The notes beneath the pieces were generated by a model. It saw only the letters and a list, made by a program, of their open reading frames with translations, made no database searches and was not told the DNA's origin. The position numbers and the translations under genes were made by a program. This document shows positions 31,209 through 62,309 of a stretch of DNA of 64,000 nucleotides, in pieces; the stretch's first letter is position 1, and each line of letters starts with the position of its first letter. This DNA comes from Felixounavirus LF82P5. Location: sequence record OZ035800.1; one strand, 5' to 3'.

Positions 31209-31479
31209 AGAAAAGTGGGAGATTTTACCATTAGTCAGTGAAGGAGGTAATGGTTGTGAAATGTACATGATACGTGGTCATGTTCCAGAGCCAATTGCAC
31301 TTGAGATGGTAAACAACTTTACAGATGGTTCTTACAAAGACTTAGGCGAACCAACTGTCAAGCAACAATGGGTTAAACCTGTACCAGACAGCACAGGTAA
31401 CTGTAGTGTACTTTATCACGTTGTAGACCCTGCAAAATGCAAATCTGCAATGGCAGTAACAAACGTAACTTTTGATTGA
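31201..31479 (+). CDS. hypothetical protein
   Basis: 92-aa ORF. Confidence 0.4.
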   Translation: MAKEKWEILPLVSEGGNGCEMYMIRGHVPEPIALEMVNNFTDGSYKDLGEPTVKQQWVKPVPDSTGNCSVLYHVVDPAKCKSAMAVTNVTFD

Positions 31480-31490
31480 GAGAGAAAACT

Positions 31491-32372
31491 ATGAAAACAT
31501 CTATCCGTGTTACAGTTCATTCACCAACTAAAGGAACTCATGAAGAAGAGTTTAACATCATCCAATTTCCTTCTGGTGAGATTGGTGGACACTTTTCTCC
31601 AGAGTTTGTTGATTTCACTGCTTATGCAGCATCATCCATCAACAATGTGATTATGATTGTAAAAGGTTATGATAAGGATACATTGTTTGCTGTGGCACTT
31701 GCTAAAGAAGCAATTGATGATTTAATTCCTCATGATTATGCTTTAAAGACTGTCATCTTTTACTACTTACCAAATGCACGTTATGACCGTCACATGTTTA
31801 AAGGCGACGCAGCAGCTTTAAAGGTTTTTGCTAAACAGGTAAATGCAATGGGATTTGGTGCAGTCTGTGCAGTTGACCCTCACAGTTACGTTCCAGATAA
31901 CCTGTTTAACTGCTTCCAGAGTATTCCTCAAAAGGAGATTGCAGTTCACTACGCAAATGACCCACTGATTGATTACTTAGTAGCCCCAGATGCAGGTGCT
32001 GCTAAGAAGATTGCAGAGACTGCTAAAGAGGTGGATAAACCATACATCACAATGTCTAAGGTGCGTAACCTTAAGACTGGTGAAATTACTGGTATGCGAA
32101 TCCTTGACGATGTTGATTTGACAGATAAAACTGTCATGATTCTGGATGATATTTGTGATGGAGGTCGAACCTTCATAGAAGCAGCCAAACATCTTCGTGA
32201 AGCAGGTGCAAAACGTGTGGAACTCTATGTAACTCATGGTATTTTCTCTAAAGATGTTGAAAACTTGCTTGACAATGGTATTGACCATATCTACACTACA
32301 AACTCTTTAGGGGAAGCTAAAGACCGTGGCTTAACACATTATAGCCAAGTTACTGTAGCAAACCTTGATTAA
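31491..32372 (+). CDS. prs: ribose-phosphate pyrophosphokinase (PRPP synthetase)
   Basis: PRTase-type motif MILDDICDGGRT and VDPHS-type element; start moved to ATG with GAGAGAG Shine-Dalgarno. Confidence 0.65.
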   Translation: MKTSIRVTVHSPTKGTHEEEFNIIQFPSGEIGGHFSPEFVDFTAYAASSINNVIMIVKGYDKDTLFAVALAKEAIDDLIPHDYALKTVIFYYLPNARYDRHMFKGDAAALKVFAKQVNAMGFGAVCAVDPHSYVPDNLFNCFQSIPQKEIAVHYANDPLIDYLVAPDAGAAKKIAETAKEVDKPYITMSKVRNLKTGEITGMRILDDVDLTDKTVMILDDICDGGRTFIEAAKHLREAGAKRVELYVTHGIFSKDVENLLDNGIDHIYTTNSLGEAKDRGLTHYSQVTVANLD

Positions 32373-56652: not shown

Positions 56653-58068
56653 ATGAGCGAGTTATTTAAACATGCGCACCTTCATGCAGGTCGAACTGAA
56701 AATGGTGCTGTAAACCATACTTCATCAATGTCTGCTCTGGTAGACTTCTACAAAGCCGCTGGCTCAAGCCGTAGCAATGTAGAAATCTTACCAGACCTGT
56801 TCTACAAAGCTTTGCGTGAGGATGTTGATGTTGCAGTTCGTATTTTACTGCATATGCGAGATGTACGAGAAGGTATGGGTGAGCGTAAAGCTTTCCGAAC
56901 TGTTTTACTTCAAGCGATTGAAGATAAAGTTTTAGAGCCTACACAGGTTCTTCGCATTATGGACAAGATTGCAGAACTTGGTCGTTTTGATGACTTCAAA
57001 ATCTTCGTAGGTACTCGTTTCGAGACAGATGCCTTCAAACATTTAGAAGCAGCATTACTAGACCCTGCAACAGCAGGTTTAGCAGCTAAGTGGTTGCCAC
57101 GAGTAAAACCACGCCACAAACAGTTTGTAAAACGTTTCTGTAAGTTTGCAAACTTAAGTGAGAAGGAGTATCGCACACTGTTATCTGCACTGTCTGATAC
57201 GGTTGAGCAAAAAATCTCTGCGAATGAGTTTGGTAAGATTGACTACAGCAAGATTCCTTCACTCGCTGCTGCACGTTACCAAAAACTCTTTAACCGTAAA
57301 GATGGGGAACGTTACAAAGCTTACATCGAGTCACTCTCAAAAGGTGAGTCTAAGATTAACGCTGGTGCTGTTTACCCATACGATGTGATTAAATCTATTA
57401 AGTATGGTAATGCAGATGTTGCTAATGAGCAGTGGAAAGCACTTCCAAACTGGATGGCAGAAGGTGAAAACATCTTGTGTATGACTGATGTTTCAAGCTC
57501 AATGTCTTGGGTGAATCTTGGCTCAATTACTGCCCTTGATATTGGTGTATCACTTGCCTTATATGTAGCAGAACGCAATACAGGTTGCTTTAAAGATGAG
57601 TTAATGGTCTATTCAACAAACCCTCATTTCATTGAACTGAGTGGTGATTTACGAAACCGTCATCGTCAGGTAATGCGTCATGTTGAATATGGTTCAACTA
57701 ACTTACAAGCAGCTTTTGACCGTATTCTTGAGATAGGTAAGAGAAACAACTTGACTCAGAAAGATATGCCAAGTAAGCTTATCATCTTCTCCGATATGGA
57801 GTTCAATCAGGTTGATGGAGCTAACGGTCGTACAAACTTTGAAGCAATTCAGAGTAAGTACAAAAAAGCTGGATATGAGATGCCACAACTAGTATTCTGG
57901 TACTTAGCAAACCGTAATGGTACTTGCGAAGTGTCTGTTAAGGATAATGGTGTAGCAATGGTATCAGGGTTCTCTCCAGCCACTTTAAAAGCTCTGCTTG
58001 GTGGTGAGAAGTTTGACCCAATCAGCGTAATGCTCAAAGCAGTAATGATTGACCGTTACATCTGGTAA
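56653..58068 (+). CDS. vWA-domain protein with N-terminal helical domain (possibly Ro60/TROVE-like)
   Basis: 471 aa; MIDAS-type DxSxS (MTDVSSSMS) with downstream Thr and LIIFSDMEF; helical N-terminal half; directly upstream of the tRNA array. Confidence 0.45.
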   Translation: MSELFKHAHLHAGRTENGAVNHTSSMSALVDFYKAAGSSRSNVEILPDLFYKALREDVDVAVRILLHMRDVREGMGERKAFRTVLLQAIEDKVLEPTQVLRIMDKIAELGRFDDFKIFVGTRFETDAFKHLEAALLDPATAGLAAKWLPRVKPRHKQFVKRFCKFANLSEKEYRTLLSALSDTVEQKISANEFGKIDYSKIPSLAAARYQKLFNRKDGERYKAYIESLSKGESKINAGAVYPYDVIKSIKYGNADVANEQWKALPNWMAEGENILCMTDVSSSMSWVNLGSITALDIGVSLALYVAERNTGCFKDELMVYSTNPHFIELSGDLRNRHRQVMRHVEYGSTNLQAAFDRILEIGKRNNLTQKDMPSKLIIFSDMEFNQVDGANGRTNFEAIQSKYKKAGYEMPQLVFWYLANRNGTCEVSVKDNGVAMVSGFSPATLKALLGGEKFDPISVMLKAVMIDRYIW

Positions 58069-58086: not shown

Positions 58087-58115
58087 TTGACAATGTGTTT
58101 GATACCCTTTAATAT
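58087..58115 (+). promoter_or_regulatory. sigma70-like promoter for the tRNA array
   Basis: TTGACA-17 nt-TAATAT; the -35 is embedded in the inverted repeat AGGGTAT...ATACCCT. Confidence 0.55.
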
Positions 58116-58395: not shown

Positions 58396-58402
58396 GTTTT
58401 GA

Positions 58403-58475
58403 CAGAAGACCAATTGCAGCAAACTTAATCTTATTCATCTGACACGAAATCGGACAAAGAAGAGATTTGGTCTGG
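58403..58475 (+). ncRNA. stem-closed structured element E1 (candidate small RNA)
   Basis: 5' CAGAAGACCAATTGCAGCAA ... 3' TTTGGTCTGG; 7-bp closing stem AGACCAA/TTGGTCT. Confidence 0.35.
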
Positions 58476-58486
58476 TCATTAAGAAT

Positions 58487-58563: not shown

Positions 58564-58569
58564 ATTTTG

Positions 58570-58629
58570 CAGAAGACCGTATTCAGCAACAAAATACTTT
58601 TTGCGGATAAAAGAAAAAACACGGTCTGG
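58570..58629 (+). ncRNA. stem-closed structured element E2
   Basis: 5' CAGAAGACCGTATTCAGCAA ... 3' CACGGTCTGG; closing stem AGACCG/CGGTCT. Confidence 0.35.
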
Positions 58630-58640
58630 CAATGTATTAA

Positions 58641-58898: not shown

Positions 58899-58985
58899 AA
58901 TTATAATAAGTATTTCAAGATGATGTTTTGAGATGGCTATTTAGCCCCTCCCTTAAAGAGTTCTTACGAGTATTCTTTAAAGGAG

Positions 58986-59062
58986 CAGAAGACCAAATTC
59001 AGCAAGTACGTATGATATTTTCAAGCCAATTTAATTTTGAAAAAATTTAAAACTTGGTCTGG
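58986..59062 (+). ncRNA. stem-closed structured element E3
   Basis: 5' CAGAAGACCAAATTCAGCAA ... 3' ACTTGGTCTGG; 7-bp closing stem. Confidence 0.35.
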
Positions 59063-59075
59063 CTCAACAAATTTA

Positions 59076-59207
59076 CAGAAGACCGTTTACAGCAAAACTT
59101 AAACAATCTATTTCTCCGGTAAAGAAAAGGCGAAGGTTCGATTCCTTCACTCGGCAGATGTCGAGTTGGTGTAATGGTAGCACTTAAGATGATAAACAAC
59201 GGTCTGG
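59076..59207 (+). ncRNA. stem-closed element E4 with embedded permuted tRNA-like module (candidate Y-RNA-like RNA)
   Basis: 8-bp closing stem AGACCGTT/AACGGTCT; inner helix CTTAA/TTAAG; T-arm GAAGG-TTCGATT-CCTTC; acceptor-like helix ACTCGGC-AGAT-GTCGAGT capped by a 4-nt loop; D-arm GTGT-AATGGTA-GCAC. Confidence 0.4.
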
Positions 59208-59356
59208 TAATTATCTTTGTAGATAAGTTATTAAGCTTACCTGTGAGTATGCGACCACAAAGGGTGAAAGGGTAAATTCTAGATTTAAACCCAACAAGGC
59301 ACATCGCTACAGACCTTAAGCAAGTCTGGGTAGCTTATCTACAAAGATAATTTAAT

Positions 59357-59590: not shown

Positions 59591-59605
59591 ATTTCAATAA
59601 AGTTG

Positions 59606-59634
59606 TTGACATTGAGATGTGACCACTTTATAGT
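59606..59634 (+). promoter_or_regulatory. internal sigma70-like promoter within the tRNA array
   Basis: TTGACA-17 nt-TATAGT. Confidence 0.5.
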
Positions 59635-59837
59635 AACCTTAGTTTTCGTTGCGTAGCGTCTATTTTGCAAATTTAAAATAAATGCAAACGACAATGTTTT
59701 TCTGGCAGTAGCTTGATAGGCTAAACACCAGTGAGGTCTTCCAATCCCTCATCAAAGAATTTGGCGTACTCGCCCACGGTATGATTAATAAGGTGGGCAT
59801 CTTTAAGGGCTTTCTAAGAGAGTCTTTAAAGATTAAT

Positions 59838-60147: not shown

Positions 60148-60552
60148 ATGAAACTTTGTAGAAAATGTTCTCAAGAAAAGCCTTTAAGCTGCTTTCATAA
60201 AAGAGGTAATGGCTATCAGTCTGCTTGCAAAGATTGTAAAGCTAAGTACTCAGCAAAGAGATACAAAGAAGACCCTACTTATAAAGCAAAAAGAAAAGTT
60301 AGGGCGAAATATGACAAAAAGAGGAACAGAGAGTTCCTTAGTAGATATAAAAAGTTTTGCAAATGCAGAATATGTGGCGAATCTGAGCCAGTAGCTTTGG
60401 ATTTTCATCACTTAGACCCTAAAGAGAAAGATTTTGCTCCAAGCAATCTTAAGACTTACTCTAGAGGCACTATTAAGCGTGAAGTCCGTAAGTGTGTTGT
60501 GCTTTGTTCAAACTGTCATAGGAAAGTTCATGCAGGACTGTTAAGTATTTAA
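60148..60552 (+). CDS. HNH endonuclease embedded in the tRNA array
   Basis: 134 aa; Cys-rich zinc-binding N-terminus and HNH core DFHHLDPKEKDF...CSNCHRKVH. Confidence 0.7.
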   Translation: MKLCRKCSQEKPLSCFHKRGNGYQSACKDCKAKYSAKRYKEDPTYKAKRKVRAKYDKKRNREFLSRYKKFCKCRICGESEPVALDFHHLDPKEKDFAPSNLKTYSRGTIKREVRKCVVLCSNCHRKVHAGLLSI

Positions 60553-60565
60553 CAGTCTTATTAGG

Positions 60566-60655
60566 GGTAGGTAGCGGCTAATGGCAGCCAAACAGTCTTG
60601 AAAACTGTTGCCACTGTAGAGATACGGTGAGGGTTCGACTCCTTTACTTACCGCC
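60566..60655 (+). tRNA. tRNA-Ser (anticodon TGA), long variable arm
   Basis: Anticodon stem ACAGT/ACTGT, loop CTTGAAA, roughly 20-nt variable arm, T-arm GAGGG-TTCGACT-CCTTT. Confidence 0.6.
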
Positions 60656-60811
60656 TAATAAGATTTAAAGCCAAGCTTCATTCGGATGTTGCTTTGGTAT
60701 CCCTCGTGTATTGTCGTACACGCACAGTAAAGCACCTAGTAGGTGTCACGGAGAAGAGATAATATCAAGCTCTCCAAAGGTTCTAGTCACCGGATTAAAC
60801 AAGACTATGCA

Positions 60812-60832
60812 AAGACCAAATTAGGTCTTTTT
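60812..60832 (+). terminator. hairpin plus T run inside the tRNA array
   Basis: AGACC-AAATTA-GGTCT followed by TTTTT. Confidence 0.4.
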
Positions 60833-60911
60833 AGAGGGCTTCTAAGGTTATTACAGCTTGTTGTGGAACCTTGTTGCTTAGGTTCTTAGAAGTTCTCTAA
60901 AAAGATTTAAT

Positions 60912-60988
60912 GCACCTATAGCCCAATTGGTAGAGGCAGCAGACTTAGAATCTGCTCAGTGTGAGTTCGAATCTCTCTAGGTGTACCA
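60912..60988 (+). tRNA. tRNA with Leu-type anticodon TAG, short variable arm
   Basis: Acceptor GCACCTA/TAGGTGT, Leu-like D-arm GCC-CAATTGGTAGA-GGC, 6-bp anticodon stem AGCAGA/TCTGCT, loop CTTAGAA, 5-nt variable region. Confidence 0.45.
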
Positions 60989-60995
60989 AATTAAT

Positions 60996-61071
60996 GCAGG
61001 TGTAGCAAAATGGTTATGCGGCTGACTCTTAATCAGTAAGACGATGGGTTCAATTCCCTCCACCTGTACCA
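60996..61071 (+). tRNA. tRNA-Lys (anticodon CTT)
   Basis: Acceptor GCAGGTG/CACCTGT, loop CTCTTAA, same weak T-arm as the other Lys tRNA, CCA. Confidence 0.5.
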
Positions 61072-61077
61072 AACATT

Positions 61078-61153
61078 GGGGTCATAGTTTATATGGTTAA
61101 AATTCGAGTTTTGCAAACTTGGGAACTGAGTTCAATTCTCAGTGACTCCACCA
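61078..61153 (+). tRNA. tRNA-Ala (anticodon TGC)
   Basis: Anticodon stem CGAGT/ACTTG, loop TTTGCAA, T-arm CTGAG-TTCAATT-CTCAG, CCA. Confidence 0.55.
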
Positions 61154-61159
61154 ATTAGT

Positions 61160-61234
61160 GCATCCATAGTTTAAACGGGAAAATTACAGTCTTCCAAACT
61201 GAGGTTGAGGGTTCGATTCCCTCTGGATGCTCCA
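61160..61234 (+). tRNA. tRNA-Gly (anticodon TCC)
   Basis: Acceptor GCATCCA/TGGATGC, loop CTTCCAA, T-arm GAGGG-TTCGATT-CCCTC, CCA. Confidence 0.6.
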
Positions 61235-61241
61235 AATTAAT

Positions 61242-61317
61242 GCTCCTATCGTATAATTGGCTATTACGGTTGCCTTGTAAGCAACTTATCAGGGTTCGAA
61301 TCCTTGTGGGAGCACCA
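61242..61317 (+). tRNA. tRNA-Thr (anticodon TGT)
   Basis: Anticodon stem GTTGC/GCAAC, loop CTTGTAA, T-arm CAGGG-TTCGAAT-CCTTG, CCA. Confidence 0.65.
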
Positions 61318-61321
61318 ATTC

Positions 61322-61408
61322 AGAGGTCAAGTGAAAGACCGCTTTGAGTCAACTGAAGACCGTAACAAATCCCACGGAGTTGAGTTAGCGGCACAACTTC
61401 AGACCTCT
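61322..61408 (+). ncRNA. stem-closed structured element E5
   Basis: Perfect 7-bp closing stem AGAGGTC/GACCTCT enclosing about 73 nt with two AGACCG motifs and internal hairpins; no T-loop. Confidence 0.3.
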
Positions 61409-61413
61409 TTCAT

Positions 61414-61488
61414 ACTCGCTTAGTTTATATGGTAAAACATCACCCTTACAAGATGAAGAAAAAGGTTCAAGTCCTTTAGTGAGTACCA
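61414..61488 (+). tRNA. tRNA-Val (anticodon TAC)
   Basis: D-stem GTTT/AAAC, loop CTTACAA, T-arm AAAGG-TTCAAGT-CCTTT, CCA. Confidence 0.55.
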
Positions 61489-61489
61489 T

Positions 61490-61567
61490 GTTCCAGTATC
61501 CCAATTGGCAGAGGATGCAAGCTCAAACCTTGTACTAGTGACGGTTCGAATCCGTCTTGGAACACCA
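61490..61567 (+). tRNA. tRNA with Leu-type anticodon CAA, short variable arm
   Basis: Leu-like D-arm TCC-CAATTGGCAGA-GGA, anticodon stem GCAAG/CTTGT, loop CTCAAAC, T-arm GACGG-TTCGAAT-CCGTC, CCA. Confidence 0.45.
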
Positions 61568-61572
61568 ATTTT

Positions 61573-61648
61573 GCAGGATTAGTTCAAATGGATAGAGCAA
61601 CAGTCTACGAAGCTGTTAATAGGGGTTCGAATCCCTTATCCTGCGCCA
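61573..61648 (+). tRNA. tRNA-Arg (anticodon ACG)
   Basis: Acceptor GCAGGAT/ATCCTGC, loop CTACGAA, T-arm AGGGG-TTCGAAT-CCCTT, CCA. Confidence 0.6.
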
Positions 61649-61667
61649 ATTTAAAGAGGCTATTTAG

Positions 61668-62225
61668 ATGAGATATTTGAAGTATGCTTCATGGATTTTC
61701 TTAGCTTTGTTAGAGCCATTTGCAGCAATCTTAGCAGTTATCTTAGCACCTTTCGTAGTTCCATTCTACAGTGAGAAGAAAGGACATCTCCCTTTTGGAT
61801 TCAGATGGATGGAGACATATGACAACCAAATTGATGGTGATAAAGGTCATGTCGAACGATGGGCTAAGATTAGAAAGATTGGTAAGCTTGGTGTCTATAT
61901 GCAGAGAGTTGGTTGGCTCTGGAGAAACAAAGCTTATAACTTCTCTTACCATGTGTTAGGAAGAGATGTAAAAGATGTTACTAAGTGGAAAGGCAATATC
62001 AATGTAAGTTCTAACCCTGAAGATAATCAGACAGGTTATCTCCTAATGTGGAACAGTAATGCTTGGGGATTATTCGCTTTTGTACCATCAATTAAAATCT
62101 TTGGTAAACAATTCTACTGGAGAATTTATGTTGGGTGGAAACTTAAAAGTGTTGTCCCAGAAGAAAGGGCATTCTCAAGGGAAAGAGTTATGTTGGCATT
62201 CTTTATTCATCCACTAAGAAAATAA
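61668..62225 (+). CDS. membrane protein of unknown function embedded in the tRNA array
   Basis: 185 aa with AGAGG Shine-Dalgarno; hydrophobic N-terminus (WIFLALLEPFAAILAVILAPFVVPF). Confidence 0.5.
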   Translation: MRYLKYASWIFLALLEPFAAILAVILAPFVVPFYSEKKGHLPFGFRWMETYDNQIDGDKGHVERWAKIRKIGKLGVYMQRVGWLWRNKAYNFSYHVLGRDVKDVTKWKGNINVSSNPEDNQTGYLLMWNSNAWGLFAFVPSIKIFGKQFYWRIYVGWKLKSVVPEERAFSRERVMLAFFIHPLRK

Positions 62226-62233
62226 AGATTTAA

Positions 62234-62309
62234 AGGGGATTAGTTTACAAGGTTAAAACCTCGGTCTTTGAAATCGAAGAAGTTGGTTCAATTCCAACAT
62301 CCCCCGCCA
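62234..62309 (+). tRNA. tRNA-Gln (anticodon TTG)
   Basis: D-stem GTTT/AAAC, anticodon stem TCGGT/ATCGA, loop CTTTGAA, T-arm GTTGG-TTCAATT-CCAAC, CCA. Confidence 0.55.

Follow-up and report, generated by a model that had tools for sequence, protein, structure and literature searches.

Species 1 and 2 of bacteriophage T4 are small RNAs that are cut out of tRNA precursors and that, to our knowledge, have remained without a known function since the 1970s. As annotated in NC_000866, their genes (rnaC and rnaD) encode non-tRNA RNAs within the phage tRNA cluster, on the tRNA strand and abutting a tRNA. A different kind of small RNA with a relation to tRNA is found in the bacterial YrlA Y RNAs, which mimic tRNA and for which a V/T/AS/D layout has been described (PMC4201824).

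The tRNA array of Felixounavirus LF82P5 (OZ035800.1) holds an element that invites comparison with both. In the stretch of 64,000 nucleotides analysed here (the window), which corresponds to the final 64 kb of LF82P5 record OZ035761.1 (100% identity in this region), 27 tRNA genes, 24 of which are confirmed by Rfam, are reported by ARAGORN between 58234 and 63585, without exception on the + strand. One sub-cluster (60912-61648) reads Leu-Lys-Ala-Gly-Thr-[96 nt]-Val-Leu-Arg, the remaining spacers measuring 1-7 nt (ARAGORN). The 96-nt spacer contains an 87-nt element (61322-61408; the Thr-Val element), which is spaced like a tRNA gene: tRNA-Thr (TGT; 61242-61317, +, CCA encoded) ends 4 nt 5′ of it and tRNA-Val (TAC; 61414-61488, +, ARAGORN) lies 5 nt 3′ of it, on the same strand and inside the same tRNA polycistron. 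In its placement, i.e. in a tRNA cluster, on the tRNA strand and abutting tRNAs, it is like rnaC and rnaD; it differs from them in that there is no sequence or model similarity (R1, a covariance model built from the element, has no match in the T4 locus), in lacking the canonical T arm carried by rnaC (CCGGGUUCGAAUCCCGG) and in being shorter (87 nt versus 119-139 nt).

An earlier note, made from the letters of the window, had described a tRNA-sized, stem-closed structured element at this place, and conservation and compensatory changes bear the description out. The sequence features that it listed are all present: AGAGGTC (61322-61328) and GACCTCT (61402-61408) are exact reverse complements of each other and enclose 73 nt; two AGACCG motifs are found at 61336 and 61357; the strands of a CCGT...ACGG hairpin lie at 61360-61363 and 61374-61377, and those of an AGTTG...CAACT hairpin, the helix with the best covariation support (P3 below), at 61378-61382 and 61394-61398; and no GTTCRA occurs, in line with the stated absence of a T-loop. 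A third AGACC, followed by T, is at 61401. Missing from that description were a CCGC/GCGG pseudoknot, a 27-nt invariant core and a Ro60-like gene upstream of the tRNA array.

By itself, the 7-bp stem is at chance level, perfect 7-bp stems enclosing 60-90 nt numbering 230 in the window and 155-198 in shuffled versions of it. The + strand of the 96-nt spacer folds at -30 kcal/mol (z = -3.8, with none of 200 shuffles as good), and the - strand folds almost equally well (z = -3.2). Since the stem is common in shuffles and both strands fold well, neither the stem nor the energy settles whether the element is real or which strand is used, and it is the comparison with relatives that does so.

Promoter-like sites are found upstream of the element, at 58087, 58178 and 59606; on the + strand of 60600-62300 neither promoter- nor terminator-like sites were detected. 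The 59606 site belongs to the tRNA-Ile/tRNA-Arg interval (59591-59837), where a near-consensus sigma-70 promoter (TTGACA-17-TATAGT, 11/12) at 59606-59634 is followed, at about 59676-59711, by a tag-like frame (GCA AAC GAC AAT GTT TTT CTG GCA GTA GCT TGA TAG, i.e. ANDNVFLAVA and two stops), which we take to resemble the tag region of Escherichia coli tmRNA; the interval gives weak Rfam matches to tmRNA (29.6 bits) and tmRNA_permuted (15.9 bits), and ARAGORN reports no tmRNA. The array further contains a 134-aa Cys-/His-rich ORF (60148-60552, +) with no Pfam match. In relatives, the tRNA arrays contain genes annotated as HNH or endonuclease VII at positions that vary, and in phage CHB7 an ORF that is PD-(D/E)XK- or tRNA-endonuclease-like lies 3′ of tRNA-Ser.

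Distribution and conservation of the element

By BLAST, the Thr-Val element occurs in 259 phage records, so that the comparison with related phages suggested in the earlier note recovers it widely. About 253 of them belong to Felixounavirus, Suspvirus and Mooglevirus (Ounavirinae), where it always lies between tRNA-Thr and tRNA-Val; the other six form the Av-05 group (Avunavirus, Vequintavirinae), where the homologue, 82% identical in Av-05, is placed 3′ of tRNA-Gly and 5′ of ORFs. The gene immediately 5′ of the element is thus a tRNA in every family member, namely Thr in Felix-like phages and Gly in Av-05. The sole neighbouring gene common to both clades encodes a predicted membrane protein (DUF7338) with a hydrophobic N-terminus; it lies just 3′ of the element in Felix-like phages and in the Av-05 clade (61668-62225, +, in the window; 20353-20895 in L095) and is missing from that position in Mooglevirus Maleficent.

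Some relatives do not carry the element. In Pectobacterium phage Wc4 and in contig L243 the Thr-Val spacer measures 9 and 35 nt, respectively, and in contig L241 the whole Thr...Gln block is absent. In Yersinia phage vB_YenM_P778 (L242, 14978-15106) the spacer is occupied by a very acidic ORF of 42 aa with its ribosome-binding site instead of the RNA element. The 21 metagenome matches all fall within the same two clades, and IMG/VR and the JGI/ENA metagenomes yielded no third one; two further patterns, used in IMG/VR to look for distant homologues, returned only coding-sequence coincidences, and R1 finds nothing in Wc4, in the rest of Av-05 or in three distant Ounavirinae-like loci. A host-encoded original was considered and rejected: 5,426 E. 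coli genomes gave no match, and the genomes of 185,579 bacterial species gave no copy and a single chance 20-mer.

Among the annotated records listed, the annotation at the element is "none", occasionally "hypothetical protein" or "unknown", and the Felix O1 genome paper makes no mention of it (PMC3185647). Felix O1-like tRNA-array sequence, with 98% identity, is also present in GU169904.1 (Staphylococcus phage SA1, 60609-60854) and in MG065664.1 (Campylobacter phage A132), two records that bear the names of unrelated hosts and are probably chimeric or contaminated.

Across 27 distinct Ounavirinae sequences the mean pairwise identity of the element is 0.965, versus 0.854 for tRNA-Thr and 0.922 for tRNA-Val, and 89% of its columns are invariant, versus 66% and 81%, respectively. 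Judged from these sequences, purifying selection on the element is stronger than that on the tRNAs which flank it. Conservation peaks in a 27-nt core (61348-61374, GUCAACUGAAGACCGUAACAAAUYCCA), which is the same in all 27 variants of both clades, with the exception of alignment column 54 (61371), which is mostly U, the window having C and two variants A. A small protein as the conserved product was rejected: the only ORF that spans the element (61304-61423, 39 aa) is broken among close relatives by 1-nt indels (TTTGAG / TTGAG / TGGTG), a polymorphism from which the element is concluded to be non-coding.

Pairing, covariation and competing folds

Base pairs were counted for three models in a register-preserving alignment (A3) of 95 columns and 21 distinct sequences, in which indels had been converted to N. 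The P1/P2/P3 model consists of three helices, all on the + strand. P1 (columns 5-11/85-91) is the acceptor-like 7-bp closing stem, formed by AGAGGUC (61322-61328) and GACCUCU (61402-61408). P2 (columns 22-25/71-74) pairs CCGC (61339-61342) with GCGG (61388-61391), and P3 (columns 59-65/77-83) pairs GGAGUUG (61376-61382, with AGUUG at 61378-61382 as its core) with CAACUUC (61394-61400). P1 and P2 are joined by a linker, J1/2 (61329-61338, AAGUGAAAGA), whose Av-05 version (AAUGAAAU) is 2 nt shorter; the invariant core, which includes GAAGACCGUA in common with one of the repeated spacers of the array (E2, see below), lies between the CCGC strand of P2 and P3 and may itself form a 3-4 bp hairpin (61348-61350/61358-61360) with a 7-nt loop, AACUGAA. 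As the 3′ strand of P2 is contained in the loop of P3 (61383-61393, AGUUAGCGGCA), P2 and P3 interleave and the supported fold is a pseudoknot, in which P2 makes a "D-like" contact. Only A61401 separates P3 from P1, so that P3 can stack on P1 as the T arm does on the acceptor stem.

In this model 98.1% of the cells are paired, P2 and P3 being paired in full in the 21 sequences, and each helix shows one compensatory double change: G-C to U-A in P1, G-C through G·U to A-U in P2 and A-U through G·U to G-C in P3. More specifically, the P1 pair 8-88 is U-A in the Av-05 clade and G·U in L149; the P2 pair 24-72 is G-C in 19 sequences, G·U in one and A-U in one; and in P3, where no cell is broken, the variants are A-U/G·U/G-C at 61-81, G·U/G-C/A-U at 60-82, G-C/G·U at 59-83 and U-A/U·G at 63-79. 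Three pairs with double changes were reached in 5 of 500 shuffles, the covariation score in none of 500, and slid controls scored far lower; the covariation as a whole goes back to few independent events (the Av-05 clade, L148, L134/L231, L021 and L025/L028). The outcome is the same when the CCGU/ACGG hairpin proposed in the earlier note is added. This optional hairpin (CCGU-AACAAAUCCC-ACGG, 61360-61377, +) is 98.8% paired, with no double change and one C·A break, and is incompatible with the two outer pairs of P3, since both need G61376 and G61377; combined with a short P3 (AGUUG/CAACU) it fits equally well, so that the outer P3 pairs and the hairpin are indistinguishable.

Read on the opposite strand, the G·U forms at 24-72, 60-82, 61-81 and 8-88 would become C·A, which places the RNA on the + strand, i.e. 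that of the tRNAs. Together with the conservation, the covariation makes it very probable that the element acts as a functional structured RNA of this strand. The same pattern bears on the alternative of a site used at the level of the DNA rather than of RNA (for instance, a protein-binding site, the target of a homing endonuclease or a promoter), which would explain an invariant 27-bp block in arrays where homing endonuclease genes come and go. However, the variation obeys RNA pairing rules, down to the strand-specific G·U intermediates, the paired flanks are conserved and not the core alone, and nothing promoter-like was matched, all of which leaves a DNA site very improbable.

A structured RNA could also serve in cis, its only role, as a spacer or processing hairpin, being to assist in the separation or maturation of tRNA-Thr and tRNA-Val. 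This explanation would predict the constant position directly 3′ of a tRNA and a stem-closed shape of a kind that is possible for sites of RNase E, RNase III or RNase P; nevertheless, we regard it as quite unlikely, given that 1-7 nt spacers suffice for the other tRNAs of the cluster, that Wc4 and L243 manage with 9 and 35 nt between the same two tRNAs, that in Av-05 an ORF and not a tRNA comes next, and that an invariant sequence of 27 nt with a covarying pseudoknot far exceeds the needs of a cleavage hairpin.

For Av-05 and L148, which diverge most from the other members, the minimum-energy fold coincides with P1+P3. In Felix-type sequences a nested rod is calculated at -30 kcal/mol, compared with -22.4 kcal/mol for P1+P3 plus roughly -8 kcal/mol for P2, and the 2-nt linker (61392-61393) that has to cross the 4-bp helix of the pseudoknot is tight. 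RNAalifold, which cannot draw pseudoknots, also returns the rod. As the native fold the rod was rejected: natural variants disrupt its helix 12-15/79-82 and its pairs 30-68, 32-66 and 43-60, and its double changes are limited to P1 and CCGC/GCGG. Since the energy model and RNAalifold favour the rod in Felix-type sequences, these calculations leave room for an RNA that may adopt two states, rod and pseudoknot.

Relation to tRNA, Y RNAs and other known families

The likeness of the element to tRNA (RF00005) goes beyond its placement in the array as if it were a tRNA gene. It comprises the 7-bp terminal stem, a T-arm-like hairpin that abuts the 3′ strand of this stem, a 7-nt loop (AACUGAA) on a 3-4 bp stem in the middle and, as in the tRNA elbow, pairing of the P3 loop with a segment at the position of the D arm. 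The element differs in being 87 nt long, in having neither T-loop nor D-loop nor an encoded CCA, and in an elbow contact made of four Watson-Crick pairs. Its 7-bp stem is followed by UUCAU and not by NCCA; both flanking tRNAs, Thr and Val, encode CCA, and so do the other tRNAs of the array that were read at the sequence level. Over 61310-61420 the tRNA covariance model (gathering threshold 29 bits) gives no match even at E ≤ 10, and ARAGORN reports none. When the element was aligned with the phage's own tRNAs the best partner was tRNA-Phe, in a collinear alignment where CAAATCCCAC faces the T-loop and stem; a score as high is reached by 11% of shuffles (p ~0.11), and the alignment depends on a C that few family members have.

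These results concern the proposal of the earlier note that the element might be a decayed tRNA, which would make it a pseudogene on its way to being lost. Its tRNA size, terminal stem, position in the array and weak collinear similarity to tRNA-Phe are indeed what such a remnant would display. Yet it is better conserved than the functional tRNAs beside it, and the 82%-identical Av-05 copy argues against this conservation being an artefact of recent ancestry; its compensatory changes keep helices that are foreign to tRNA, the tRNA-Phe alignment is not significant, and both tRNA detectors are silent. Because a drifting pseudogene is ruled out by the conservation and the invariant core, this proposal has been abandoned and is given next to no probability. 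A tRNA origin is possible as far as the sequence goes, and the RNA is not a tRNA today.

The element was also suggested in the earlier note to be a further member of the structured-RNA family formed by the repeated spacers E1-E4 (58401-58481, 58567-58633, 58983-59066 and 59073-59214, +), all of which contain the motif UNCAGCAA. Their architecture is [4 bp]-AGA-AGACCnnn...nnnGGUCU-G-[4 bp], with outer pairs that covary (UGAC/GUCA, UUGC/GCAA, GAGC/GCUC and UUAC/GUAA), and the exact motif is found in IMG/VR only in Felix-like contigs. In the fourth spacer, E4, the AGACC stem closes a circularly permuted, tRNA-like V/T/AS/D four-way junction, i.e. the layout of YrlA. A further AGACC/GGUCU pair is present in a terminator-like hairpin (AAAGACC-AAAUUA-GGUCUUU, with a U run) at 60812-60836, adjoined by a long hairpin (60834-60900) with weak Rfam matches to microRNA families. 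The E-family motif (U)UACAGCAA by a short terminal stem gives weak Rfam matches (24 and 12.8 bits, at 58575-58628 and 59081-59206) to RF01414, the Dictyostelium Class I RNA, whose conserved motif is CCUUACAGCAA; they are probably a coincidence.

Directly 5′ of the tRNA array lies an ORF of 471 aa (56653-58068, +) with DUF2828 and a vWA-like domain (Pfam). Its AlphaFold model (pLDDT 86) has Ro60/TROVE proteins as its top 11 PDB matches, all over the full length and with E ~1e-7, and in profile comparison its best PDB match is likewise Ro60. Homologues were retrieved from 709 phage records, among them those of mycobacteriophages, in which the annotation is Ro-like. In the related case of Bas63, gp130 has been judged Ro60-like and some of the "tRNAs" have been guessed to be Y RNAs (PhageMaP preprint, PMC11482910). 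Given the YrlA-like layout and the adjoining Ro60-like gene, E1-E4 are most simply phage Y RNAs.

Whether the Thr-Val element belongs with them is a separate matter. As a diverged fifth member, with C-N-GAAGACC as the protein-binding site, it would be a Y RNA-like partner of the Ro60-like protein, an explanation for which the predicted structure and profile of that protein, the Bas63 parallel (PMC11482910), the YrlA-type junction of E4 and the position of the gene, 3.3 kb upstream on the same strand, can be adduced, as can the sequence GAAGACCGTA, the only one that the element and E2 share. Like the YrlA/YrlB Y RNAs (RF02553), the element is a small stem-closed RNA encoded not more than a few kb from a Ro60-type gene, on the same strand. 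It differs from them in that its motif is internal and not at the terminal stem, and in a tRNA-like layout that is not circularly permuted and has neither T nor D loop. What defines the E elements is also missing: they all have the terminal stem, whereas the Thr-Val element has three copies of AGACC and no GGUCU-G partner strand, lacks UNCAGCAA and reads GACCGUAACAAAU in place of CAGAAGACCNNNTNCAGCAA, a motif found four times per Felix-like genome and not at this element. No YrlA match was found there with Rfam. In the window, R1 matches the element alone (122.6 bits), leaving E1-E4 unscored, and outside it retrieves orthologues in relatives.

Inheritance is at variance with a Y RNA role as well. 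Av-05 has the element with an identical core and no E-type motif, and its 120.9-kb genome revealed no Ro60-like gene (tblastn, E ≤ 10), while Pfam showed no TROVE domain in nine ORFs of this genome, namely the four that flank the homologue and five with lengths of 285-478 aa; conversely, contig L241 has a Ro60-like gene (63% identity) with three E elements and does not have the Thr-Val element. The element therefore assorts independently of the Ro60/Y RNA module and is no dependent part of it. Of the earlier family assignment, the shared GAAGACCGTA stands and the kinship does not, and the Y RNA-like partner remains an unlikely identity for the element. Nonetheless, the RNA may bind the Ro60-like protein in Felix-like phages.

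No family of Rfam 15 was recognized in the element, the matches being noise (snoR101 at 15.8 bits, sR4 and IRES_KSHV). A hammerhead or other ribozyme, called to mind by CUGAAGA and GAAA, was rejected on account of an unsuitable helix order and the absence of an Rfam match. The closest known RNAs are rnaC and rnaD of T4 by context, tRNA-like RNAs by layout and Y RNAs by neighbourhood. Because the element fails the defining tests of each of these families, its product is most appropriately treated as a new family, to be grouped loosely with the small stable RNAs that are embedded in phage tRNA clusters.

Possible mode of action and significance

The preferred reading, that of a small structured RNA gene of a new family whose product would be released by tRNA nucleases, protected by its fold and active in trans through the invariant strand, has in our opinion about an even chance of being right as a whole. 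The RNA would be excised from the tRNA precursor by the nucleases with which the host matures tRNAs: RNase P, acting at the 5′ end of tRNA-Val, would leave a 5-nt UUCAU tail, and at the other end the 3′ trimming of the upstream tRNA and possibly a cut by RNase P at P1 might contribute, the P1/P3 stack being itself a candidate substrate. The compact, tRNA-shaped pseudoknotted fold would then protect the molecule, which is expected to be stable because its ends are paired, and the invariant 27-nt strand may offer a recognition surface to a partner in trans, either a protein or a stable RNA. As the core is the same in phages whose hosts are E. coli, Salmonella, Shigella or Citrobacter, and in two phage subfamilies, this partner is expected to be conserved in the hosts or common to both phage groups; it would not be, or not only be, the phage Ro60-like protein.

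Searches for nucleic acid partners gave chance-level candidates. In the window there is no complementary match of at least 13 nt to the element, and complementarity searches of phage genomes returned only a non-conserved site. This lies at 31846-31880, in the ORF (31476-32372, +) of prs, for ribose-phosphate pyrophosphokinase, where a bipartite complementarity to the core stands far above the rest of the genome; antisense action on prs was rejected, as the -32 kcal/mol calculated here weakens, with the core unchanged, to -13 (FelixO1) and -16 (Mijalis), and in the light of this lack of conservation the site is judged to be chance. Complementarity to the anticodon stem of the phage tRNA-Arg(UCU) is limited to 9-mers, as expected by chance, and was likewise discarded, Av-05 being without tRNA-Arg; the anticodon stem of the host tRNA-Lys is presumably complementary to the same chance-expected 9-mer level. 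Mimicry of the decoding site of 16S rRNA was rejected as well: the resemblance of TGAAGACCGTAACAA to E. coli bases 1490-1503 (TGAAG-TCGTAACAA) scores 18, below the mean of 20.2 for shuffled elements, and is therefore attributed to chance.

More specifically, and as a rather speculative proposal that we consider improbable though not negligible, the RNA would be a tRNA-shaped decoy or adaptor, matured like a tRNA and unchargeable, that captures a conserved host factor acting on tRNA by means of the 27-nt strand and the AACUGAA loop. Candidates for this factor are an anticodon nuclease or another defence effector directed at tRNA, and also enzymes of tRNA processing or modification. The use of the rod and pseudoknot folds as a switch is a further possibility.

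Felix O1-like phages are widely used in typing, biocontrol and therapy, and their tRNA arrays are now viewed as arsenals of counter-defence. In this context the Thr-Val element represents an unannotated gene in about 250 sequenced genomes, more tightly conserved than the tRNAs around it, and, after species 1 and 2 of T4, a second and genetically tractable case of non-tRNA stable RNAs in phage tRNA clusters, in which the invariant single strand provides a handle for pull-down and mutagenesis. With a Y RNA-like set beside a Ro60-like protein in the same array, the "tRNA region" of these phages would encode at least three kinds of RNA and, if the RNA does act as a decoy, an RNA-based form of counter-defence would be carried within the tRNA array itself.
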